Shown here piece after piece: positions 28,307 through 62,647 of a DNA stretch of 64,000 nucleotides. The stretch lies in the NCBI RefSeq assembly GCF_018977255.1, contig NW_024704743.1:11720001-11784000 (forward strand), written 5' to 3'. The position numbers and the translations under genes were made by a program. Within the stretch, counting starts at the first letter, position 1, and each line of letters starts with the position of its first letter. The stretch comes from Callorhinchus milii (taxonomy: Eukaryota). The notes beneath the pieces were generated by a model, which saw nothing but the letters and a program-made list of their open reading frames with translations, was not told the origin of the DNA and made no database searches.

Positions 28307-29694
28307 CGTCCCACCATTCTGCCTTCTGCCCCCACCCTCTGGAACTCCATCCCGTATTTCCTCCGCTTCACCCCCTCCCTTGCCTCCTTCAAGATCCATC
28401 TCAAGACCTCTTCGACTGTGTTTTCAATCACCCTACTTCCCCCCCCTCCCACGCCCTCCACCTTCCCCAATCTCGAACCTCAGCTTGAGTCCAAAACTCT
28501 GACTCTCCTGCACCACAAAGCGAAGGCAGATGAGTCCTCATCTCCCATCATGATGGTATGATCAGCACCTGATTTCAGTATTGCACCACAAGAAGGTTGT
28601 AAGGGCACATCCAGAGAAAGAAACAGACCAGTATAGCCTTAATAGAGAACCATGGTTTCTAGGAATCAAGGGTTGCCTGCTTTCCGATGGCGTCCCCTAA
28701 CTATCTTTCATGGAACTGCAGGAGTGTCTGGGACACCCAAGTCTGCTGGTCACGGGGGAAGTAAATTTGCGCCAATTGCTCTCTACTCAGCCCAAAATGC
28801 TGTATTCTGTTGAGAGAACGATCTTCCCTTCATTTCATGGCAGCCCACACAAAGTTGAGTGTGGGGGGAGGGGAAAGAGGTTGGGCTCCTCCCTCCCTGA
28901 GATTTAATTGAATTTAATCAACTCCCTTTCACGTGCGACCCTGGTATCTGGGAGCAAACATTTATCACGTTTGTCTGAGGACGAGACTCCCTCCCCCTTC
29001 ACAAGAGAATGAATGTTCCTCTTGGCTTGTCTTTCAGCTCTCAAGCCTCTATTTCTGGGAGAGGAGGGGACTTTCCCCACGGGAGCAGTGGCTCTGTTTG
29101 GGATCTCCATAAGTGGGCCTTTTAGAACTCCTTTTAATTTAACCAGGAGTAAAGTGTGTTCCCCTTCTGCTCCTGATGAATCACACATATTGTATTACTA
29201 GAAGTAATTTGAAAGGTTGAAAGTCATGATACAAGCTTATATCTAGAAATAGCCTCCCTTTTTGCATCCATTGATAAACTCTGAAATAAATATTGTACAC
29301 AATTCAACAAGGTAATGTCCATTAGCTCCTGACAATTTGTACCTATCTGGTTTCCTTTAGGATAGTCTAACCACCTGGAGATGTAGAATACAGAAGAGAA
29401 TAGAGGAATAGGAGGGATGGTTGGGAGCTTGTGTGGAGTATAAACACCGGCACTGACTGGTTAACCTGTCCTGTCCTGTATCACTCAGTGATACTCCACC
29501 AAGTTTGTGCTACTGAAGTCTTGCAAGTAATTACTCAGGAGTCCCATAGCATAGTGGTTGGTGTACTTATCTCTCAAGCAAGAGTACCCGAGTTCAATTC
29601 CCGGGCAGGGTGAAATCTTAGACACGCCTATGTTTACCTAGCATTAAGTAGTTTGTTATTTGATTGGCGAATCACTTTCTGGGGATAATAATCA

Positions 29695-31550: not shown

Positions 31551-31717
31551 GTGAGTCTGCGGAGGAAAGGCGAAAGGAACGCGAAATCGTGGAAGAGGTG
31601 TTAGCAGACATTCCCGAGCACGAGGAGGACTACTTGGATATGACTCTGGAGGAGGAGAAGGAAGTGATTTACAAGTACAAAAGCTGGCTACAGGGTTCAC
31701 AGCAATCCACGTCCTAA
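31551..31717 (+). CDS. NUB1: NUB1 terminal coding exon with stop codon
   Basis: ttgcag acceptor; ESAEERRKEREIVEEVLADIPEHEEDYLDMTLEEEKEVIYKYKSWLQGSQQSTS*, containing the NUB1 C-terminal motif DIPEHEEDYLD. Confidence 0.96.
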
Positions 31718-34340
31718 GCATCTGCAAGAGGAGCCGAGTTCCACCTGCCTTCATTTGATCACTCGTCGACTTTAGCTTTAATTTTTAGCAGTGATTTTGA
31801 ACACACCGGACTAGTGTTTTGGCATGTTGAGATTCTGTATTTGTTCTTTATTTTAAATCAACTGTGCTTTTCGTGCAGTGATTTGCACCTCAGTAACACT
31901 CCGCTCGTCTTAAGTAAGACTGGACTCACTTTACCAGCAAAGGTTTTCTAGTTTCCGATGTGGGAGGGGGATTTGGGTGTGGGAGGAGAAATACTACTTG
32001 GTACAGTAAGCGCCAGGGCTCGTTATAATGGCTTGTGGATCTGAAGGATGATTTTGATGGCTGTTGGAGCCCATGTTAAATGGCACTGCTATAGGGGACT
32101 TTCCTTAATTTTCTCTTTTTATCCTCTTAATTAATTAATTAATTAATTGGGGTTCCCAAGTCTGGGCTCTTGCCAACTTGTACATAAAACTCTGCAGAAT
32201 TAGGTAAACAGGATACATCCTTCCAGGGAGAGAGTACACATTCCATTTCAGCAATCTATCTCTGAGATTTCCATGTGAAGGTAGGATGAATGAAAATCTC
32301 AATTTGGTTTGGATATGCTTAAGCATGGTGATGGGTTTCCGCATGTTTCAGACATCCACCCGGTTGACCAAAGAAAATCCTCCTTTTTCTCCCTCCCATT
32401 TCCACTCCCAAAATCCTTCCCTCCCCCACCACCTTTGGGCTGTTCTTCTGCCTCAGTCACACTGTAGTTCATTGCTCTCAGGCTCATGCTTACATCTGAT
32501 CCCAGTAATAGCCTCCTCCCCACATAGAGGAACGTTTCACACACCAGCAGGCACCTCATTTTAACACTGATCAAGATAAGAGGCTGGGACAGTCACAGCT
32601 ACTGTCTTGTCCCTTAACTCAAGCTGAAGTTTCTTTGAGATGCATATTTTATGATGTTGGAATAATAAAATGCGATGCCCCAAATCCCTCTCCATTATTG
32701 AGATTCTACCAAAAGAACTGGAGATTTTTTTTCCCCCTCCCTTACTGGAAAGGTGCACTTTGCTTTTGCTCAGTATTCAGATTGTGCTTTCATCCTCTGT
32801 ATCATCTCTTCACTCACTACTTTCTCCCACATTCTCCTCTTTAAGATTCCTTGTAGGCAAACAACTAGCAGGCTTCAGCACACTGCTGGGTTTGAAATGT
32901 ACATTGTACATGGTGTCCACAAAGTCTTGTTACCCCATGTTTTTTTTTCTACAGTGCACTGACCAACAACTGAAACGTGGAAGAATGATGATAATTGCAT
33001 GGAGAAGTACTTAATTGTATTCAGTATAAGCGTTTAACTGTATTTAGACATCCAACAAAGTGAGTGAGCGCCATCATTTTCATGGCATATAATGATCCGT
33101 CGCCAAGTTCAGTGCCACATCTTCCGTAACGTGATGGAGTGACGAGGAGAAGTGCATCTCTGACAGCTTGTTTCAGCTCCACTGTAGTCTTTTATCGCTG
33201 TTTTGTAACAGGGGGGTAACAGGACTTTGTGGATACCCTGTATAATGCATATGAACTGAACCTCACGGTTTTATTTTTTTTTAAAGTTGAGTGAAAATTT
33301 CAGCAAAAAACAGATTTATATAAAGTTGATTGGAATTTAAAGCATATGAAATTATTTTTTTTGAGAGGTGTATTTTGTCTTAATCTAGTAAATTTTTGTA
33401 GAGAAGCCAGATTGTCAGCAGTTACGCCGACTGAATTTTTTTGATATATATATATATTAAGAGAAATGTGCTTTGGGATTTCAATATCCTGTAGCATATC
33501 CTGGATTTGTCCTCTTTGATCTCATCCGTTCCTTTTTCTCTCTTGGTATGGTAAGTGATAGGTCGCTATATCAAATGCAAGGATTATTGTGGCTGCATTC
33601 AGTGAAGCAATCCGTGCTGCAGCACAGATGGTCAGTCTACGCTGTTGCAATGAGCAGCAGCCTCATGGACTGTGTGAGCGCATGTTGCTCACCAGCATCT
33701 TCTGTTTCGAAAAATTACATTTGAACACTGGTTATTTTTAACTTATTTTGAACCGTGAGTTTTTTTCCTTTTCTCCCCACTAACACCATAGTTGTGGATT
33801 TAAACAAAATTAAGGTAAACCTTTTTTTTCTGTACTGATTTTTTTCACAGCAGATGTTTATGTTTGAGCATTCAGTGTTAGGTCTGCATTTGAAATGGAA
33901 GTGATCTTGTTTTAAAGCAATTGTTTTACAAGACTAGAGTTTTATTTTTAAATTATGGTTAATTTGTCTCTATTTGCAAGGATTTTATCCTCGCTTAATT
34001 GATGTACTCCTAAAAGGAGCTTTTATTTCTCTTCAATCAATTTCCCTTCTATTACCATGTCTTCTGATGCCTTTCGCTGCTTTCCATCCTGACAGTGGAA
34101 ACTCATATGTTTTTTTTGTCTGAAAAATGTACGTTTCTGATGTTGCAGTACCATTTCCTGAACTCCTGGTGTCCAGGTCCATTGAGAACTGTGAGTGAGT
34201 TTTTACATTCTGAAATAAAATGATTGTACTCTACAGCCCCATGTTGCTGATCTATCTTGATCCACGTAATGTACAGAGAACATTGATTTTTTTTCTTTCC
34301 CCCCCAAAAAAAAAATTTGTGAATAAATGTAGAACTTTGT
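31718..34340 (+). other. NUB1: Probable NUB1 3' UTR (about 2.6 kb)
   Basis: AT/T-rich, largely repeat-free sequence after the stop, ending at AATAAA hexamers just before a CR1 fragment. The end point is inferred. Confidence 0.6.
34214..34327 (+). terminator. Candidate polyadenylation signals for NUB1
   Basis: AATAAA at 34214-34219 and 34322-34327; the second is followed by a GT-rich tract (ctttgtgtgg). Confidence 0.5.
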
Positions 34341-34534
34341 GTGGAATAACTTATTGTGTGAGGCCATAAATGGGTTCAAGAGATGCTTTGTCACGTAAAG
34401 TTCAAAGTATAAAACACAAGGTCACAGCCCATTACAATAAATCCTGTGAAGCTCTTTGAGATGTCCTGAGGTGAAATGTTATATCAAATGTAAGGATTAT
34501 TATAGCAATGGGGAAGTTTTCAAATGTTTACTTA

Positions 34535-35506
34535 GCTTTTTGATCTACATAAATGACCTGGACTTGGGTATAGGGAGTACGGTTTCCAAGTTTGCAGGTG
34601 ATACTAAGCTAGGAAAAGTAGTAAACGGTGAGGAGGATAATAGCAGACTTCAAGAGGACATACACAGACTGGTAAAATGGGCAGAATGTGGCAGATGAAG
34701 TTTAATGTGGAGAAATACGAAATGAAGCATTTTGGGAGGAAGAATGAGGAGAGGCAATATAAGCTGATGGTACAATCTTGAAGAGGGTGAAGGAACAGAG
34801 AGACCTGAGGATTCATATAAGTAAATCTTTGAAGGTGGCAGGAGAGGACAAAGCTGATAAAAAAGCATACAGTATACTAGACTTCATAAATGGAATACAA
34901 AAGTCAGAAAGTTATGATGAACCTTTATAAAACACTGCTTAGGCCACAGCTAAGCCCATTTTACCAGTCCGTCTGTGTTCAGTTCTGGGCACCACACTTC
35001 ACAAAGGATATCTCAAGGCATTGGAGAGGGTGCCAAGGAGATTTACCAGGATGTTACCAGGAATGAGGGATTTCAGTTAGCAGGAGAGGCTAGAGAAGCT
35101 GGGATTATTCTCCTTGTAGCAGAGAAGGTTAAGAGGAGACTTAAGTGAAGTTTTCAAAATTATGAGGGGATTCAATAGGGTGAACAAGGAGAAGCTATTT
35201 CCACAGGCGGGTGGGTCGGTAACCCGAGGACACCGATTTAAAATAGTTGAAAGAAACGGGAGGTGAGTAGACATTTTTTCACACAGCGAGTTGTGGCAAT
35301 GCATTGCCTGAAAGGGTGGTGAAAGCCGATTTGATAACAGCTTTTAAGAGAGAAGTAGATGATTATTTGGGGAGGACAAGTTTGCAGGGCTATGGGGAGA
35401 GAGCGAAGGAGTGGGTTTGGTTTGCATAGGTCTTTTCAAAGATCCAGCACAGACATGATGGGCCTAATGGCCTTCTTCTGTGCTGTATAATTCTACGATT
35501 CTATGT
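34535..35506 (+). mobile_element. CR1 3' fragment
   Basis: FLIYINDLDLGIGSTVSKFAGDTKLG; tail ctgtgctgtataattctacgattctatg. Confidence 0.92.
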
Positions 35507-36240
35507 TTCACATAAGACGAAACATAAAATCCCAGCATAGCTTGAGTTGCCTCAACCCAGAACTGGCTCACCCTCTTGAAGATCTGAAAGCCACCAAAAG
35601 AAGAGGGAGGAACGAAGAGTTAGACGAGTAAGCCCAATCCTAATCACTCACTAAACTACTGTAAGGGCACAGTTTAAATGATAATTGTAATTTTGGAAGA
35701 TCCTTTGCAGGTGCTCAGCCTACCATGAACTAAATGTAGGGCAAGAGAATAGGACTGGAGGAAAGTAGTGGTAGGGAGAGCAGATCGTGAAGATAATGAT
35801 AATAAGCCTTCCATTTGGCCAGGACACTGGGAGAACACCCTTCTCGTTTCGAATAGTGCCATGGGAACATCCAGCTCAAGAGGCAGATGAGACCTCAGTT
35901 TAATGTCTCATCCAAAGATGGCACCTCTGAGAATACAAAACCCCACCCCTCTACCAGCACTGCATTTGAATGACAGCCTAGACTGAGTTCAGGTGCCTCT
36001 GACATGTTCAATGTTAATAGGTATTATGACAAACAAGAGGATTCCTATTGGTATTGGTCTGAGAGAAGCTCACTTCTTTGTTCTGTTGCGGAGGGAGCAG
36101 CGTAACATAGCAAGAGAAGAGGGAGAGAGAAAATGTCACTTAAACTGGCCAGGGTGTATATTGTGAATAAAATTTTACTTTTGGTTTGCCATTTACATTG
36201 AATCAATATTTAAAGAGTGCATTATCAGTGTGTGTGTCAT

Positions 36241-36254
36241 TTTCAGTTTCACTT
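36241..36254 (-). promoter_or_regulatory. IRF-E/ISRE motif
   Basis: TTTCAGTTTCACTT, reverse complement AAGTGAAACTGAAA, matches AANNGAAANNGAAA exactly. Confidence 0.45.
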
Positions 36255-36887
36255 GTTAATGTCAAAAGCTGTAAACTTTTCAGAGAACATCAGGCCTCAG
36301 GAGCCTGAGTTGGTAGACTGTAGCCCAGGAGAGTGCCATCTCAGTCTGGTTTTGTAGAGGAAGTCTGACTGGGATGAGGACGCTGAGCTCGTTTAAAGAA
36401 ACATAGCTTGATGCTATGATGGAAATTTTGGAACAAAGCCAGGAATAAATACCTTCATTACCTGCCACATCCTATTCTCTGACCTGGTCATTCCCTAACT
36501 CCTATGTTCACCCCCTCCACTCAGCTAACACAGGCTTGCTCCATATTCCAACCCACCCGCACTCCACCCCTTGCCACCATTGGTAACTAAATGTTCGGTC
36601 ACTGCCCCCCAAACCTCTGGAACTCCCTAGCTGTAACCCTGCTCCTTGCACTCCTCTCTATCCATCTTTGCAGCTCATGCAGGGCTTTGCATTCACAATC
36701 CAGGCTGACTCCATTCCAGTGCTGGGGGAGCACTGCATTATCAGAGGTGCCCCATCTGCTTGTTCAAGTGGATGTTAAAGATTCTGTTGCATTATTCAAA
36801 AATAGGAAAGAAGTTTCTCATGGTTTCCTGGCTAACAATCCCCTGTCTGCTTTTTTGAGAGGGTTGTGTGTTTGCTCAGAGAGCGTG

Positions 36888-36970
36888 GGGGATTTCCAGC
36901 TGTGCTTTCCCCTTTAACTGAACTTTGGAAGCTGCAAAGGTGAAAGTGAAACAAGATTTTGTGATGTCAA
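36888..36970 (+). promoter_or_regulatory. Candidate inducible promoter of the NUB1-like gene: NF-kB site, IRF-E/ISRE and CRE-like site
   Basis: GGGGATTTCC at 36888-36897 (matches GGGRNWYYCC), partial kB GCTTTCCCC at 36904-36912, GAAAGTGAAAC at 36942-36952, TGATGTCA at 36962-36969, all just upstream of a strong splice donor. Confidence 0.55.
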
Positions 36971-36989
36971 AGCTCCTGAGTAACAACAA

Positions 36990-37064
36990 CACTGCACCTT
37001 CTCACTTCCAGTTTCTGCTTCAATTTGAGGCAGAAGAGGATTTGATACAGGAAAAGACTTAAGG
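36990..37064 (+). other. Candidate non-coding first exon of the NUB1-like gene (start approximate)
   Basis: Unique sequence ending in the consensus donor AGG|GTGAGT (intron begins 37065). Splicing to 38208 places an in-frame TAA (37060-37062) upstream of ATG 38221. Confidence 0.5.
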
Positions 37065-37094
37065 GTGAGTGAAAGAGACTGCCAACAACTTGCA

Positions 37095-37690
37095 TAGCTC
37101 GACTATCCCAACGCCTTGCTCGTCAGCCTTCCCAACTCTTCCCTCCACAAGGCACAGCTCATCCAGAACTCTGAGGCTCGTGTCCTCTCCCACACCCGGC
37201 TCTGTGACCCAATCACACGCAGCCTTGCCCAGCTCCACTGGCTCCCCGTGCCTCAGAGGATCAAGTTAAATATTCTCGTCCCCCCTTACCTTCAAGGCCC
37301 TCCATGGTCTTGCCCCCTTCTACTTCTCCGACCTCCTAACCCCTTATCAACCTGCCCGCTCCCTCTGCTCAGCAGGCTCTGGTCTGCTCCACGTCCTCCG
37401 TCTGACCTGCCCCACCATCAGCGCTTGGGCCATCAACCTCTCTGCCCCCACTCTCTGGAGCTCTATTCCACATTCCCTTTGGGTCGTTCTCTCCCTTGCC
37501 TCCTTCAAGGCACACCTCAAGACTCTCCTCTTCGACTGTAACTTTGCCACCCTCTCTGCCCTCCACCCTGCCTGATCTCGACTCCGCCCCCCAGCCCCGC
37601 TTGGGTCCTAATCCCCTCACCGTTCAGCGTTTTGGGACGTCCTCCCGATGTGAAAGGCGCTTTACAAATGTAATTTAGTTTTGTATTGTA
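37095..37690 (+). mobile_element. L2 3' fragment
   Basis: QLIQNSEARVL...LAQLHWLPVPQRIK; tail gggacgtcctcccgatgtgaaaggcgc. Confidence 0.88.
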
Positions 37691-38220
37691 TAGCGTCTCT
37701 CATGTGGAGTAGTGTGACAGAGGTGGAGGAAAGCGGTCTTGGTTAGGGACCAGATGTGCGGTAGAAAGGACGATTGAAGATTGAACCTGACACCTACATT
37801 AAGTACAGGTTCAATAAGTCTGAGGTTGGAGCCGCAGGTGAGAAGACATTTATGGGAGCCAAAAAGTATTCGGGCTATTCGGACCGTCATATCTGGGCTG
37901 GCTCTTTAAAAGAGCAACCCACCTAGTCCTATAATTGAGACTTTACACCAAGGTCCCTTCTATACCTGCTCAGGTGGATATTAAAGGTACTGTGTTACTA
38001 TTTCTGCTCGGCAATGCCCTGGATAATATCAATCATTTAACTTTATGGCTATTTGTGGAACATTGCTATGCACAAATTGGCTGCCACATTCGTCCACAAA
38101 ACACAAAGTGACTCCACTTACGCAAGTAAATATCCAATTTGAAATGTTCTGATGATATGATAAGGTGGTGTATCCGATGCAAAGATCATTATTTGGATCC
38201 TTTTTAGTCAAGAGAAGAAG

Positions 38221-38313
38221 ATGACTGATCGTACAATGGAAGTGAATGAAGGATCGGCATGCGGCAGCTCAAAATCTGTGACCATTTTCATTAATTCACC
38301 AAATGAATGTCAG
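38221..38313 (+). CDS. NUB1-like paralog, first coding exon (acceptor at 38208, ATG at 38221)
   Basis: tttttag acceptor; MTDRTMEVNEGSACGSSKSVTIFINSPNECQ, with VTIFI fitting UBL strand 1 (NUB1 ATIEVF); CAG|GTAAGA donor in phase 0, matching the next exon. Confidence 0.7.
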
Positions 38314-38344
38314 GTAAGAGTGTTGACCAGCGAAGTCTAAGCTC

Positions 38345-38590
38345 ATACTCTAATGCACCATTGGGAGTGTGTTGCATTGTCAGAGGTGCCATCCTTCAGA
38401 TGAGACGTTAAATCGAGGCTCTGTCTGCCTGTTCAGGTGGATGTTAAAGATCCCATGGCATTATTCAAAAAGAGAAGGGAGTTTCTCCCAAGGTCCTGGC
38501 CAACAATACCCCAAATAAAATTGGTCACTTGATTCATGGCTGTTTGTGGGACACAGCTATGCGCAATTGTGCTGCCACGTTTGCTTACAA
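38345..38590 (+). mobile_element. Deu-domain SINE (SacSINE1-like) fragment
   Basis: gatgagacgttaaa...ctgcctgttcaggtggatgttaaagatcccatggca; related copies near 19600-20010, 36700-36845, 39140-39400, 41060-41295(-), 48270-48590, 56430-56700, 62690-62985. Confidence 0.8.
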
Positions 38591-38988
38591 ATATGGGAGT
38601 GGAATCGCTGCAGGTGGAAGGCCAGAGAGAGACGAGGTCCAAGGATAAAAGGACATTTGTGAGGGACTTGTGTGGAAGATTTTTCCACGGGCAGAATAGA
38701 ATGGAAGAGGGCTTGGAGGAGGGGAGAGAGATGCAAGAGGACAGGGAGATGAGGAAATGGCCAGAGATGGCCTTGTCTGTGATGGACAGATCGGAGATGT
38801 CAAGACTGCACCCTGCTTACCTAATATCCAGAGAGGATTAGGCCTCTTAGTATTAAATTGTCTCAAAATAGCAAGTCTCTTTGGGTTCAACCCCTGCTCG
38901 GGTCTAAATCCCTGACTGTCAAACGCCTTGGGACATCCTCCTGGTGTGAAAGGTGCTATACAAATGGAAGTTGTTGTTGTTGTTTCAG

Positions 38989-39059
38989 GGTGCTGGAAAC
39001 AAAACCAAGCATACTGTGCAAATTAACCTGACTGCTACTGGGAAAGATCTGAGAGCAAG
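38989..39059 (+). CDS. NUB1-like paralog exon, UBL domain, phase 0 to 2
   Basis: tttcag acceptor; GAGNKTKHTVQINLTATGKDLRA(R), cf. human NUB1 LETRLHITGRELRSK; AG|GTAGAG donor. Confidence 0.85.
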
Positions 39060-39653
39060 GTAGAGTATTTTAAACAAGATGAATTTAAGGCTAATGTGAA
39101 AATATGGTCACCCTACCTGACACATTTTTTACATCAAAACAGCAGTGTTGGTGGTGGGCTGCATTGTCAGGAGTGCTGTCCTTCAGATGACATGTTAAAC
39201 CCAGGACTGGTCTGTGCCTGTTCAGGTGGACATTAAAGATCCAGTGGCACACCCGAAAAGAGAGAGAATTTCTCCAGGTGTCCTCGTCAACAATCCTTCA
39301 AATAAACAATAATTTGTCATTCACTTCCCGGCTGTCTGTGGGACATTGTTAATTGGCAATACACAGTCAATAAACTTTACAGTAGAATCCTGTCAAGTGC
39401 TTTTGAGTTGTCTCAATAATAATACTTGCATTTGATATTGCGCCTTATCAGGTCTTCGAGACGTCTCAAAGTGCTTCACAGGATATACTGTAAAGTGAAC
39501 TGACTATATTTTGTGGGCCTCAATGACGTAATAAGGCACTATATCAAACTCAAGGATGATTATTATTAAAAATAGTGAAGTACGATTCACCATATCTTTC
39601 ATTGCATATGCTGGTTTAGATATTATGTCTTAATTTGTCCCATTAATTTTCAG

Positions 39654-39724
39654 AGTCTCGGATTTGGTTAAGATAGAACAAGAATGCATTGAGCTGATAT
39701 ACTGCGGCAGGAATCTTGATATGG
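39654..39724 (+). CDS. NUB1-like paralog exon, UBL domain, phase 2 to 1
   Basis: ttttcag acceptor; VSDLVKIEQECIELIYCGRNLDM, with the ubiquitin-fold motif LIYCGRNL (ubiquitin LIFAGKQL); G|GTAAGT donor. Confidence 0.88.
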
Positions 39725-40017
39725 GTAAGTACTCCAGATCCCAGACTCTGTGATCTGTGTACCCTGCTTGGGTAGTTTCGTAAGTCTCACATTTAGTATC
39801 AGTGTTGTACAATCTGCATTGATGATTTTTTTTGGCATTAAACAACAACAATTTGCATTGATACAGTGCCCTTCATGTGGGATAACATCTTACAGCGCAC
39901 TTTCATTTTATCCTTCGTGAAGGGCTCTATATAAATGCAAGTTGGTGTTGCTGTTGTTTATTTTGGTCAGCCGGGTGTCTGAGACACACAGCCATGGAAT
40001 GAATGACTAATTTTATT

Positions 40018-41060: not shown

Positions 41061-41760
41061 ACCTATTTGGGGGATTGATGGCCAGGACACTGGAAGAAAC
41101 TCCCTTCTCTGTTCAAATGGTGCCACAGGATCTTTAATGTCCACTTGAACAGGCGGATCTCAGTTTAACGTCTCATCCAAAGGACGGCACCTTTGTCAAT
41201 GCAATGCAACTCTAGCACTGCACTGGAATATCAGTTTAGACTGTGTGAGTTCAAGTCTCAACCTGAATGCTACCTCTGAGTCAGGCTGACACACATGTCA
41301 CCTTGGAGTCAGTTCAGTTCCAAGGAGACCTCACTTAACTCTCCCCGAAGGAGGATAGTCCCTAGTTAGTCATTTTACATCCAACAAGCGTGGATTTGAG
41401 GTGGATGTCACGTACCAGAAACTCCCCGCGAGCTTCCTGGTGAACTCAGCATGATATGCGTGAGAGCATTGCCACCATCTTCCTGCCCACAGGACGGACA
41501 CAGAGTTTAACCAGCTAAAGCTGCATAGCTTGCCATTGTCGAACTAGGGCCAGCCAACCCGTTTGGACTTTGCCTTTGAGGGTGAAAAGGAGCTGAATGA
41601 GAAGAATCCCTACTCTGTGTGACCAATCTTCCCCTCCAAGTCCTACTGACGAGCCAGGCTGATCTGATGTGTCATCAGTGGGCCCTGAGTTCCTCATGAG
41701 TGGAGAGGGGGAATGGAATGAGTTTAGTGCAGCACCTGTATTTGTGATTTGTTTTCTCAG

Positions 41761-41892
41761 AAAAACCTCTGTCGGAACAGAAAATAGTCGACAAAGCAAG
41801 AGTTCGGGTGAAAAAGATAGACATGAAAGCAAGAGAGGAGGAGCGCTGCCTGTCCAGGATAAAGAAAGGAGCAGATCTACTGGTTCAGCGAG
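41761..41892 (+). CDS. NUB1-like paralog exon, end of UBL plus linker, phase 1 to 1
   Basis: ttttctcag acceptor; (E)KPLSEQKIVDKARVRVKKIDMKAREEERCLSRIKKGADLLVQR, cf. human KTLEEQGV...IQRTKRGLEILAKR; G|GTCAGT donor. Confidence 0.88.
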
Positions 41893-42333: not shown

Positions 42334-42413
42334 GTGAAAATTTTGAAAAGACCTATTTAAAAATTACAAATGAGAAATTGGAAGTTGTTGAGGTCCCAGA
42401 AAAAGAGCGGGTG
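42334..42413 (+). CDS. NUB1-like paralog exon, homologous to 12688-12776, phase 1 to 0
   Basis: tttccag acceptor; (G)ENFEKTYLKITNEKLEVVEVPEKERV vs (G)ENTDLSNAPYLEVADQKGRPIPIPAVEKK; GTG|GTGAGT donor. Confidence 0.88.
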
Positions 42414-42545
42414 GTGAGTATTGACCCGAACTTCAGTTGAAATTGTTTTTTTTTTGTGCCTCCAGATCCGTACAAGATCGCTTAAGCTGAAAAATCAGCC
42501 CCTCATTCTCTCCCACTCATTGCTCTGACTCTGAGGTGACAGTGT

Positions 42546-43484
42546 GCCGGGCTGACACACACTCTGAGCCGGGCTGACGCACACTCTGAGCCGGGCTGAC
42601 GCACACACTGAGCCGGGCTGACGCACACTCTGAGCCGGGCTGACGCACACTCTGAGCCGGGCTGACGCACACACTGAGCCGGGCTGACGCACACTCTGAG
42701 CCGGGCTGACGCACACTCTGAGCCGGGCTGACGCACACACTGAGCCGGGCTGACGCACACACTGAGCCGGGCTGACGCACACTCTAAGCCGGGCTGACGC
42801 ACACTCTGAGCCGGGCTGACGCACACTCTGAGCCGGGCTGACGCACACTCTGAGCCGGGCTGACGCACACTCTGAGCCGGGCTGACGCACACCTGAGCCG
42901 GGCTGACGCACACTCTGAGCCGGGCTGACGCACACTCTGAGCCGGGCTGACGCACACTCTGAGCCGGGCTGACGCACACTCTGAGCCGGGCTGACGCACA
43001 CTCTGAGCCGGGCTGACGCACACTCTGAGCCGGGCTGACGCACACTCTGAGCCGGGCTGACGCACACTCTGAGCCGGGCTGACGCACACTCTGAGCCGGG
43101 CTGACGCACACTCTGAGCCGGGCTGACGCACACTCTGAGCCGGGCTGACGCACACTCTGAGCCGGGCTGACGCACACTCTGAGCCGGGCTGACGCACACT
43201 CTGAGCCGGGCTGACGCACACTCTGAGCCGGGCTGACGCACACTCTGAGCCGGGCTGACGCACACTCTGAGCCGGCCTGACGCACACTCTGAGCCGGCCT
43301 GACGCACACTCTGAGCCGGCCTGACGCACACTCTGAGCCGGCCTGACGCACACTCTGAGCCGGCCTGACGCACACACGGAGCCGGCCTGACGCACACACG
43401 GAGCCGGCCTGACGCACACACGGAGCCGGCCTGACGCACACACGGAGCCGGCCTGACGCACACACGGAGCCGGCCTGACGCACA
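42546..43484. repeat. 22-bp minisatellite, about 43 units, consensus CTGAGCCGGGCTGACGCACACT
   Basis: Read directly; the 22-aa periodicity of the overlapping ORFs (66 nt = 3 units) confirms the unit length. Confidence 0.97.
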
Positions 43485-43782: not shown

Positions 43783-43895
43783 GCCATTTTAACAGCCTTG
43801 GTTCTGCACGAAACAGCCCGAGATTACATGAAGCCGGAGAAGCAGGACTGGACCAGAGCCCTGAAATTTTTGAAGTTTGCAGAGGAAGCATTTGG
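43783..43895 (+). CDS. NUB1-like paralog exon, homologous to 13939-14045, phase 0 to 2
   Basis: ttgcacag acceptor; AILTALVLHETARDYMKPEKQDWTRALKFLKFAEEAF(G); GG|GTAATA donor. Confidence 0.9.
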
Positions 43896-45060: not shown

Positions 45061-45533
45061 TGTGATAAGGTGCTACATCAAATGCAAGGATTATCATTAT
45101 TATCACCTTTATAATTATTATAAACAAGGCTCCATCTGCCTGTTCATGTCAATATTAAAGATCCCAAGGCACTACTCCAAAAGAGAAGGGAGTTTCTCTT
45201 GGTGTCCTGGCCAACAATCCCACAGATAAACTTGGTCGTCAACTTCACGGCTGTTTGTGGGATGTGGCTGTGCACAAATTGGCTCATGTGTTCACCAATA
45301 AAATGCACAATCACTACGGTTTACAGTAAATCCTGTGAAGCACTTTGGGACGTCCGACCGACGTTCAACGCATACTGTATGGATTGTTATGATTACTATT
45401 ATTATTGTGTAAAACATGCAGTCAGATCGCAGGCAGAAGAAGCTGTCCCTTCAGACAGTAGCAGGAAGATTGGCCATGTGTTGGTTGGACAGGTTCTATT
45501 AGGTTTCTTTTCACGCATTGCCTCTTTTCACAG

Positions 45534-45720
45534 TGAGTGCAATCAGGACTATATCAAATACATCGATAATAATGGAGTCCTCAATCTAGACGTACTTTGG
45601 TGTTACATGAAGCTGGAGAAACAACCTTCCCTTGAAGAAGCAAACAAAAGATTGGAAAATGCTGAGATGTACCTGAAAAATACCTTTGAGAAAAACACGG
45701 AGTCAGATCAGGAACATGAG
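45534..45720 (+). CDS. NUB1-like paralog exon, homologous to 17088-17274 (same 187-nt length), phase 2 to 0
   Basis: ECNQDYIKYIDNNGVLNLDVLWCYMKLEKQPSLEEANKRLENAEMYLKNTFEKNTESDQEHE; 20/62 identities to the NUB1 exon by hand count; GAG|GTCAGT donor. Confidence 0.93.
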
Positions 45721-48656: not shown

Positions 48657-48764
48657 GAAAACAGTGTGAGAAAGAAGATACTGTTCTTGCAAGTGCACAT
48701 TCTCTGGGGAGTGCTGTTCTCCTACAGGAGCATGAAGAAGGAAGCTCTTGATAATTTCCATAAG
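48657..48764 (+). CDS. NUB1-like paralog exon, homologous to 19393-19500 (same 108-nt length), phase 0 to 0
   Basis: AAGCAG tandem acceptor; ENSVRKKILFLQVHILWGVLFSYRSMKKEALDNFHK; donor GTACAG identical to the NUB1 counterpart. Confidence 0.9.
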
Positions 48765-51702: not shown

Positions 51703-51855
51703 GCAGAGAAGTTGTGTGACGAGCTTCGGTTGGATGACTGCGACTTTGCCCAACTCAGGCATGGAGGGCTGACACGTCAGGAGGCTCGGCTGGGTTTGCG
51801 AGCCTGTGGCGGTGACCTGGGGAAAGCTAGAGAGTTTATTCAGCAAAGGAGACAG
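51703..51855 (+). CDS. NUB1-like paralog exon, UBA1-like, homologous to 20753-20905 (same 153-nt length)
   Basis: AEKLCDELRLDDCDFAQLRHGGLTRQEARLGLRACGGDLGKAREFIQQRRQ; 25/51 identities including QEARLGLRAC; donor GTAACT identical to the NUB1 counterpart. Confidence 0.94.
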
Positions 51856-52927
51856 GTAACTATGTAAATAAGTAAGAGCAAAAATTGGAGCTGAGATCTG
51901 GAGAAAGTGAGACAGAGTCTGACACCAACCGTGGACCCAGCACCAGAAAGGTAAACCATTGCACCAAGCTCAGAATCTGTGGTGGTTCTCGGTAGTCCAG
52001 TTCCTGGGTCAGGCAGGTCTGCAGTAATCCAGGCATTGCTGATGACAGCCATTGAGATGGGATGGGTAGACTGGAAGGATGAGGTAAAATGGGTCGAAGG
52101 CCCTTGTTCATTCGATCCGATCCTATGTTCTTGTGAATTGGCTGTTCCCACTGTTTGTGAAAAGCAAGTCATGCAAGCATGCCAGAAGGGAATGTGAATC
52201 AGTGTTTACACACACACAACTGCCAGCTCCGTGCACCACGACCCGGCTGGGAACACAATGTAATTCTCTTTTGCAGGTGATGCAGGCAAACTGCGGTAGG
52301 TCTTACACCAGCTCTGGACCATCGGTGACCTTTTGTAGCACACTGTGCAGGAACTCAATTTGTTCCCAGTGAGAGGTTGGCCTCTGACCATCCTCCCCTC
52401 CCTCACCCACCCAACTACAATAAAATACAATACAATTTGCATTTAATATTGCACCTTGCACGTCAGGGAGGACATTCACAGTGCTTGGCAATGCTGAGCT
52501 GGGAATGGGGTGCAGTGGCGAGGGGAGTGATTGAAATTTCGGTCAGAGATAGGAACATAGGAATTGCTAGATGAAAAAAGACAGAGGTCCATCTCATTCA
52601 CCTTCTACCTGCTGTTATGCTACAATACCTTTGATGGAGGGGAGAGAGCAAAGAGGAAAGAGGAGACTTGATAAGGAGGCCAACCAGTCTCACTCCCCCG
52701 CTCTTTACCCACAGCCCTGCAATTTTTTTCCTTTTCAAGTATATATCCAGTTCCCTTTTGAAAGTTATTATTGAATCTGCTTCCACCACCGTTTCAGGCA
52801 GTGCATTCCAGATCGTAACAACTCTCCGAGTAAAATAATTTTTCCTCATCTCCCCTGGTTATTTTACTAATCTCTAGAAAGCACATCCCTTTCAATTAGG
52901 TAATGCTGAGTTTCTGGTCTTAAACAG

Positions 52928-53047
52928 CGAATTGAACAGCAAAGACTGGATTCTTACAAAGGCAAAAGAGACCGTACTGAGGTGATGGACGTGGGTGATT
53001 CAGAACATACAGCATCTCAGACCTTGCAACCTAACCAGGCCACACAG
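52928..53047 (+). CDS. NUB1-like paralog exon, degenerate UBA2, phase 0 to 0
   Basis: taaacag acceptor; RIEQQRLDSYKGKRDRTEVMDVGDSEHTASQTLQPNQATQ, where VMDVGDSEHTASQTL aligns with LMARGFSENAATKAF; CAG|GTAAAC donor. Confidence 0.75.
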
Positions 53048-62526: not shown

Positions 62527-62647
62527 GTTTGCGGTCAACTCAATGGAACTTCAAGTTCACAAACCACGGAAGCTGCAGATGCACTGATGCTTGTGGGTGC
62601 ACGTGTACAGCCAGTCCTAGCACCCAATCCCACCAACGTGTCCGAAG
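62527..62647 (+). CDS. Probable NUB1-like paralog exon in the position of the UBA3 exon, phase 0 to 1; gene continues beyond the window
   Basis: Unique island between SINEs with polypyrimidine tract plus ctcag acceptor and G|GTAAAT donor. Open frame VCGQLNGTSSSQTTEAADALMLVGARVQPVLAPNPTNVSE(G). Phases match NUB1 exon 27725-27893 but sequence similarity is not recognisable. Confidence 0.6.

Follow-up and report, generated by a model that had tools for sequence, protein, structure and literature searches.

Does the short stretch of unique sequence between NUB1 and a NUB1-like gene of the elephant shark act as a promoter that responds to infection, and what kind of protein is encoded behind it? 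These questions were addressed in a window of 64,000 nucleotides (the whole stretch of DNA analysed), for which a first-pass annotation had proposed an NF-kB plus IRF promoter module and a non-coding first exon serving a fast-evolving, immune-inducible NUB1 paralog. The best explanation for the evidence as a whole, which we regard as probably correct, is that the region holds the TATA-less, CpG-poor promoter and the first exon of a NUB1 copy that arose long ago by tandem duplication and has been retained across the cartilaginous fishes, and that this promoter is likely to be interferon-responsive.

The exon at 45535-45720 was 100% identical to Callorhinchus milii LOC103190493, a gene annotated as NUB1 or NUB1-like that is already present in databases through automatic annotation. 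This gene lies in tandem beside canonical NUB1 and matched human NUB1 with an E value of 2e-45, in agreement with the proposed status of the paralog as a NUB1 duplicate. The 5′ exons and promoter of canonical NUB1 fall outside the window; AATAAA-type signals were present at its 3′ end, at 34322 and 34436, and its contigs from all four aligned runs stopped at 34305 to 34315, beside an A-run. The last coding exon of the duplicate lies past the window end. The UBA1 exon at 51703-51855 is skipped in isoform X5 of RefSeq and in one older model (P0002 and P0003); human NUB1 requires this domain to degrade FAT10, and the product is a possible inactive splice form. An intron of the duplicate contains a 22-bp minisatellite (42546-43484; 42.7 copies, 98% matches). 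Among the papers listed by searches of the open-access literature, none was seen to describe this duplicate or the promoter in front of it. The features of the locus are collected in Table 1.

Table 1. Features of the locus within the 64,000-nucleotide window; the class names SINE-like and LINE2-like are our own reading of the repeats.
Feature	Position	Strand	Remark
Canonical NUB1, last exon and 3′ UTR	31552-34315	+	tblastn; approximate 3′ end; directly upstream, same strand
Distal IRF element AAGTGAAACTGAAAA	36240-36254	-	predicted; about 700 bp 5′ of exon 1
Weak GAS-like site TTCAGAGAA	36279-36287		25 bp from distal IRF element; spotted post hoc
SINE-like repeat fragment	36708-36843	+	up to 7 overlapping self-matches in window; ends just 5′ of motif module
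Consensus NF-kB site GGGGATTTCC	36888-36897	+	about 45-70 bp 5′ of contig 5′ ends
Partial kB-like site	36903-36913	-	fails pattern GGGRNWYYCC
Proximal IRF element AAAGGTGAAAGTGAAAC	36936-36952	+	GAAAGTGAAAC plus degenerate third half-site; overlaps furthest observed 5′ end
Exon 1 of NUB1 duplicate	36940-37064	+	5′ limit is furthest contig end
CRE/ATF-like TGATGTCA	36962-36969	+	within exon 1; overlaps upstream ATG
Upstream ORF, 32 codons	36964-37061	+	in frame with main ORF across splice; closed by one TAA
Splice donor GTGAGT	37065-37070	+	used; AGG/GTGAGT, exon end 37064
LINE2-like repeat	37097-37691	+	in intron 1; 3′ flank of module
Exon 2	38208-38313	+	annotated start codon 38221
Exon 3, ubiquitin-like domain	38989-39059	+	contigs and tblastn
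Exon 4, ubiquitin-like domain	39654-39724	+	contigs and tblastn
Remaining coding exons in window	41760-62647	+	tblastn of protein P0008, 87-100% identity per match
Coding exon (approximate)	41760-41892	+	tblastn
Coding exon (approximate)	42334-42414	+	tblastn
Coding exon (approximate)	43783-43895	+	tblastn
Coding exon (approximate)	45534-45720	+	tblastn
Coding exon (approximate)	48657-48764	+	tblastn
Coding exon (approximate)	51703-51855	+	tblastn
Coding exon (approximate)	52927-53047	+	tblastn
Coding exon (approximate)	62528-62647	+	tblastn

Orthologues of the duplicate were detected in Pristiophorus, Heterodontus, Mustelus, two Scyliorhinus species, Carcharodon, Chiloscyllium, Rhincodon and Stegostoma, and also in Amblyraja, Leucoraja and Hypanus. 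The nine duplicates in a 22-row tree formed a single clade (100/100). Its stem measured 0.88, and the tip of the elephant-shark duplicate measured 0.75, compared with 0.11 for elephant-shark canonical NUB1. Grouping of the duplicate with cartilaginous-fish NUB1, which concerns its placement among jawed vertebrates, gave an AU P value of 0.27. No bony-vertebrate sequence fell inside the duplicate clade in a 57-row quick tree constructed with 45 of the 150 listed matches, and among the sequences examined the duplicate is restricted to cartilaginous fishes. Over 315 columns shared by elephant shark and sawshark, 142 positions (45%) were identical for the duplicate and 268 (85%) for canonical NUB1; together with the long stem and tip, these protein distances establish at the protein level that the duplicate is fast evolving, as had been proposed. 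Two long-branch NUB1-like proteins were observed within the bony-fish clade (P0036, from Betta splendens, and P0038), the former also having a shortened UBA region, and these are perhaps independent fast-evolving duplicates. A scan of metagenome contigs for a related locus produced 165 pattern matches, none of which was confirmed.

Alignment of the proteins indicated that the duplicates keep the UBL, the helical core, UBA1 and the C-terminal helices, while UBA2/UBA3 and the N-terminal domain are missing; no duplicate had more than one UBA stretch, compared with three in canonical proteins. The elephant-shark duplicate scored 34.1 bits for PF18037 (cut-off, 23.2), and this domain was above the cut-off in seven of the eight other duplicates scanned. 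Its UBA1 scored 13.9, below the Pfam cut-off of 22.4, yet reached 48% in the alignment to the canonical exon. The predicted structure had a mean pLDDT of 72.5, with a disordered linker (pLDDT of <50 at 356-423) replacing UBA2/UBA3, and matched the NUB1 UBL of 8usc_g in a fold search, which gave mainly UBL matches because no solved NUB1 core was among the library hits. Judged from its sequence, the duplicate is a NUB1 family member and not the canonical orthologue. Three of the duplicates, from Mustelus and the two Scyliorhinus species (P0016, P0018 and P0019), have a C-terminus in which basic residues come after a hydrophobic segment, resembling a tail anchor; the best 19-residue hydropathy was 1.7 to 2.4 in these proteins versus ≤0.75 in 12 other duplicate sequences, and a membrane-bound form of NUB1, if this is one, would be unusual. 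In the annotation of the Carcharodon duplicate (P0026 and P0177) the C-terminus resembles histone H2B (PF00125; E value, 1e-21), which may be a gene-model fusion with neighbouring histone sequence.

The pattern of loss can be compared with the functional dissection of human NUB1 presented in PMC12285911, where deletion of the N-terminal domain or of UBA2-3 left FAT10 degradation largely intact, while the UBL, a beta-strand trap (212-216), UBA1 and residues D278, N279 and Y572 mattered. By analogy, the domains missing from the duplicate are those that are dispensable for FAT10 degradation by the human protein. D278, N279 and Y572 were retained in all nine duplicates, and the trap strand of the elephant shark reads YLKIT. 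These retained residues name no particular client, because the canonical NUB1 of animals that have no FAT10 keeps D278, N279 and Y572 too.

The proteasome-facing residues behaved differently from the trap residues. M154 and L156, which form the Rpn1 T2 contact of human NUB1 according to PMC12285911, are replaced by R and K in the elephant shark, arguing against simple delivery to the proteasome in this species. M154 was replaced by R in three of the nine duplicates (those of the elephant shark and two batoids), and L156 was hydrophobic in one and non-hydrophobic in eight. An alternative role, which we consider rather unlikely, is therefore suggested by the sequences: an inducible duplicate could serve as a decoy or competitor, binding a ubiquitin-like client through the retained trap but, having no Rpn1-binding patch, keeping that client out of reach of both canonical NUB1 and the proteasome. 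This role is compatible with induction and so does not exclude it. However, M154 was retained in the other six duplicates, the register of this strand was read from an ungapped alignment only, and the UBL fold itself is kept, both by PF18037 and by the predicted model. Under the preferred explanation, the beta-strand trap and the Asp-Asn/Tyr triad would most likely catch the His-bearing strand of a ubiquitin-like protein that is unstable, as in human NUB1, and the UBL of the duplicate would most likely pass the captured protein to the proteasome.

Contigs from four of 14 listed runs were aligned to 34000-39800; the RNA status of these runs was guessed, and the set carried neither a DNA control nor a record of library or treatment. 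A GT..AG joint from 37064 to 38208, exactly the junction that had been predicted, was present in contigs from three of the four runs (X3, X5 and X6, from two studies), and spliced contigs ran on through the joints 38313-38989 and 39059-39654 into exons 3 and 4. The spliced contig of X3 had 29 letters on the exon 1 side. Run X2 had no exon 1-2 joint, but exon 4 was uncovered as well in this run, so that the missing joint is uninformative. Zero depth was observed for all four runs in the unique bins 35552-35745 and 36134-36327, which fits RNA but is not taken to speak against transcription in these bins, and the exon at 45533-45720 was present in 12 of 14 listed runs, 8 of these being guessed to be RNA. 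One X2 contig matched 37713-37795 without a mismatch, leaving 73 letters unplaced; this match falls in a possible cryptic exon (37713-37837) within a LINE2-like fragment of intron 1, with an AG before it and a strong donor after it, and could represent an alternative 5′ UTR form or another copy of the repeat.

The longest contigs ended at 36956 (X5, letter 1 of the record) and at 36940 (X6, last letter), in both cases flush on the genome and without any letters left unaligned. A contig end does not by itself mark a start site, but in some molecules transcription must have begun at 36956 and 36940 or further 5′, upstream of the 36970-37010 interval estimated by the first-pass annotation. The IRF element thus lies at the observed 5′ end; the kB site is about 45 to 70 bp upstream of it, and TGATGTCA falls within the exon. 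The last of these had been counted as an upstream promoter element, a role that does not fit its position in exon sequence transcribed in both of the longest contigs; its presence is probably incidental, and a function for it seems improbable. The description of exon 1 as non-coding holds for every annotated protein, with all the elephant-shark proteins inspected beginning at 38221, but needs qualifying in that the ATG at 36964 opens an upstream ORF. The last 11 bases of the exon (37054-37064), read in the frame of the main ORF, are one base per codon off possible coding for MAEG, the residues with which six elasmobranch duplicates begin. Exon 1 may therefore, speculatively, be the remnant of an exon that once encoded protein.

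Reading of the sequence located the claimed kB, partial kB, IRF and CRE-like motifs and the splice donor at the positions given for them. GAAAGTGAAAC occupies 36942-36952 within AAAGGTGAAAGTGAAAC (36936-36952), and bases 36942-36951 match GAAASYGAAA, that is, an GAAANNGAAA-type element near the contig 5′ ends at 36940 and 36956. The strict ISRE, AGTTTCNNTTTCNY, and the 12-base IRF-E consensus had no perfect match in 36000-37100; the proximal site departs from the strict ISRE at the first of 14 positions. Both GAAASYGAAA matches in this interval lie within 700 bp 5′ of exon 1. The second IRF element, reported at 36241-36254, is present (36240-36254) and is the sole AANNGAAANNGAAA match within the 64-kb window, but, like the proximal site, it is not a perfect match to the strict consensus. 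The nearby TTCAGAGAA is weakly similar to the GAS consensus. The kB and IRF sites had been described as adjacent; the measured spacing between the upstream kB site (36888-36897) and the IRF site (36942-36952) is 44 bp. No TATAWA, CCAAT or GC box was found at the start region (CCAAT and TATAWA being checked on both strands of 36756-37006), where the CpG observed/expected ratio was 0.09.

Neither the 253 bp of the proximal module (36844-37096) nor 35989-36573 had a repeat match elsewhere in the window; delivery of the motifs by a transposon was ruled out within the window, as the motif segments lie outside repeats. Rfam gave no structured-RNA matches in 34000-38400. Two more consensus kB sites, GGGACTTTCC, were observed in the last intron and the 3′ UTR of canonical NUB1 (29067-29076 and 32095-32104), sites that occur at chance frequency.

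All the consensus patterns were chosen by the analyst after the site had been seen. None of the single motifs was enriched by itself across the 64-kb window, the observed and expected numbers being 9 and 14.6 for the kB pattern, 3 and 1.9 for GAAANNGAAAS, 7 and 4.9 for GAAAGYGAAAS with one mismatch, and 6 and 4.5 for TGAYGTCA. A kB-IRF pair no more than 100 bp apart occurred once in the window, and such a pair appeared anywhere in 15% (loose IRF pattern) or 4% (stricter IRF pattern) of 150 shuffled windows, which makes the pair by itself no more than modest evidence. Placement of the pair at the RNA 5′ end was more discriminating. For the region from -200 to +50 around 36956, 30,000 dinucleotide shuffles were performed; a kB site was found together with GAAANNGAAA in 18 of these and together with GAAASYGAAA in 4. 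A kB site and two IRF matches within 1 kb were obtained in 2 of 10,000 shuffles, for a region picked post hoc. Both motifs were present in none of 254 tiles of 251 bp, a result that is uninformative because a tile edge cuts between the kB and IRF sites.

These figures bear on whether the exon is real and the gene simply constitutive or tissue-restricted, with kB and IRF matches that are due to chance or serve basal, IRF2-type transcription only. The lack of enrichment of single motifs and the 15% of shuffles with a loose pair agree with such a gene, as do the spliced contigs from runs in which no stimulation was recorded (treatment being unrecorded). The isolated proximal promoter of human NUB1 was likewise weakly inducible in the reporter assays described in PMC12960655, with a modest response to IFN-beta and little to IL-1. 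Against this stand the rarity of a kB and IRF co-occurrence at a start defined by RNA, the second IRF element 700 bp upstream, and the nature of the parent gene: NUB1 is listed as a core interferon-stimulated gene in Table 1 of PMC5747502, as expected from the claim that mammalian NUB1 is interferon-inducible, and its row in that table carries no asterisk, a sign taken to mark mammal-only genes. An IRF promoter is thus to be expected in a duplicate of such a parent, which raises the prior for induction while lowering the surprise. A constitutive gene is, on balance, an unlikely reading. By the same token, the idea of a specialised immune copy is weakened, since the parent itself belongs to the core interferon-stimulated genes of mammals and chicken and the type of promoter may have been inherited. 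In a carp poly(I:C) paper, NUB1 was absent from the main text.

We regard it as very unlikely that 36940-37064 represents a minor or internal exon of the 5′ UTR, with the main promoter further upstream (for example, near the distal IRF element) or with read-through from NUB1. In favour of this reading, the X6 contig stops at 36940 directly after an AG, a possible weak acceptor; the isoform X1 protein stands under four RefSeq accessions (three in the older annotation), so that other 5′ UTR forms probably exist; and 125 weaker joints fall outside those listed. Against it, the pyrimidine tract before the AG is poor, the two contigs end flush, and no joint among those listed enters 36940 from upstream. 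None of the listed contigs bridged 34315 to 36940.

For the interferon-responsive promoter that we favour, IRF1/IRF2 or ISGF3 at the proximal element would support basal transcription, interferon or viral RNA would produce an IRF-driven rise in transcription, and NF-kB at the kB site would provide added inflammatory input. Induction through IRF factors appears quite likely, while a real contribution of NF-kB, known as an input at the promoters of MHC class I (as described in PMC7281430) and FAT10 (as described in PMC7356809), is evenly poised, and function of the distal IRF element is somewhat doubtful. The arrangement of sites suggests that infection may switch the duplicate on.

The promoter by itself is ordinary for an interferon-stimulated gene, and the trimmed duplicate is the interesting part. 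Only for FAT10 is the way in which NUB1 captures a client understood; FAT10 is described in PMC12285911 as exclusively mammalian, as the first-pass annotation had stated, and in the reconstituted system of that report NEDD8 fusions were not degraded via NUB1. A duplicate that has kept exactly the trap module, carries an immune-type promoter and persists in rays, sharks and chimaeras offers a natural bait for whatever the NUB1 trap catches outside mammals, and would reveal whether inducible degradation without ubiquitin is older than the mammals. It is conceivable, though we would not expect it, that a dedicated interferon/NF-kB-induced duplicate of cartilaginous fishes, reduced to the trap for unfolded strands, serves its own inducible ubiquitin-like modifier, a functional counterpart of FAT10, or traps pathogen proteins, with the rapid change in the proteasome face and the membrane-anchor-like tail of carcharhiniforms reflecting a host-pathogen conflict and a shift between disposal and decoy functions.

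The protein is most readily compared with human NUB1/NUB1L (PDB 8USB and 8USC; PF18037 and PF00627), with which it shares the order of exons encoding the UBL, the core, UBA1 and the C-terminal helices, and also the trap strand, D278, N279 and Y572; it differs in being without the N-terminal domain and UBA2/UBA3, in the replacement of M154/L156 in the elephant shark and in evolving far faster. For the promoter, the first-pass comparison was with MHC class I, whose enhancer A and ISRE, as described in PMC7281430, show the same order of kB, partial kB, IRF and CRE-like sites. The duplicate, however, has a kB-IRF gap of 44 bp, an IRF element at the start and not well upstream, a CRE-like site that is transcribed, and no CCAAT/Y box or TATA. 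On these sequence features the resemblance is one of analogy and not homology, and the promoter is not an MHC class I-type module. A closer analogy is provided by the TATA-less promoters with a start-proximal IRF element: that of TRIM14, where an ISRE at -27 to -17 binds IRF1 and IRF2 (as described in PMC6668374); that of ISG20, a TATA-less promoter with a start-proximal ISRE (as described in PMC9157404); and those of zebrafish IFIT genes, in which the presence of an ISRE predicted induction (as described in PMC3688568). Multimerised GAAA half-sites similarly mark inducible IRF binding in the macrophage data of PMC4335295. Shared with the TRIM14, ISG20 and fish IFIT promoters are an IRF element tens of bases from the start, the absence of a TATA box and a basal transcript; the promoter of the duplicate, known here from sequence, differs from them in having no GC box or CpG island and in its added kB site.
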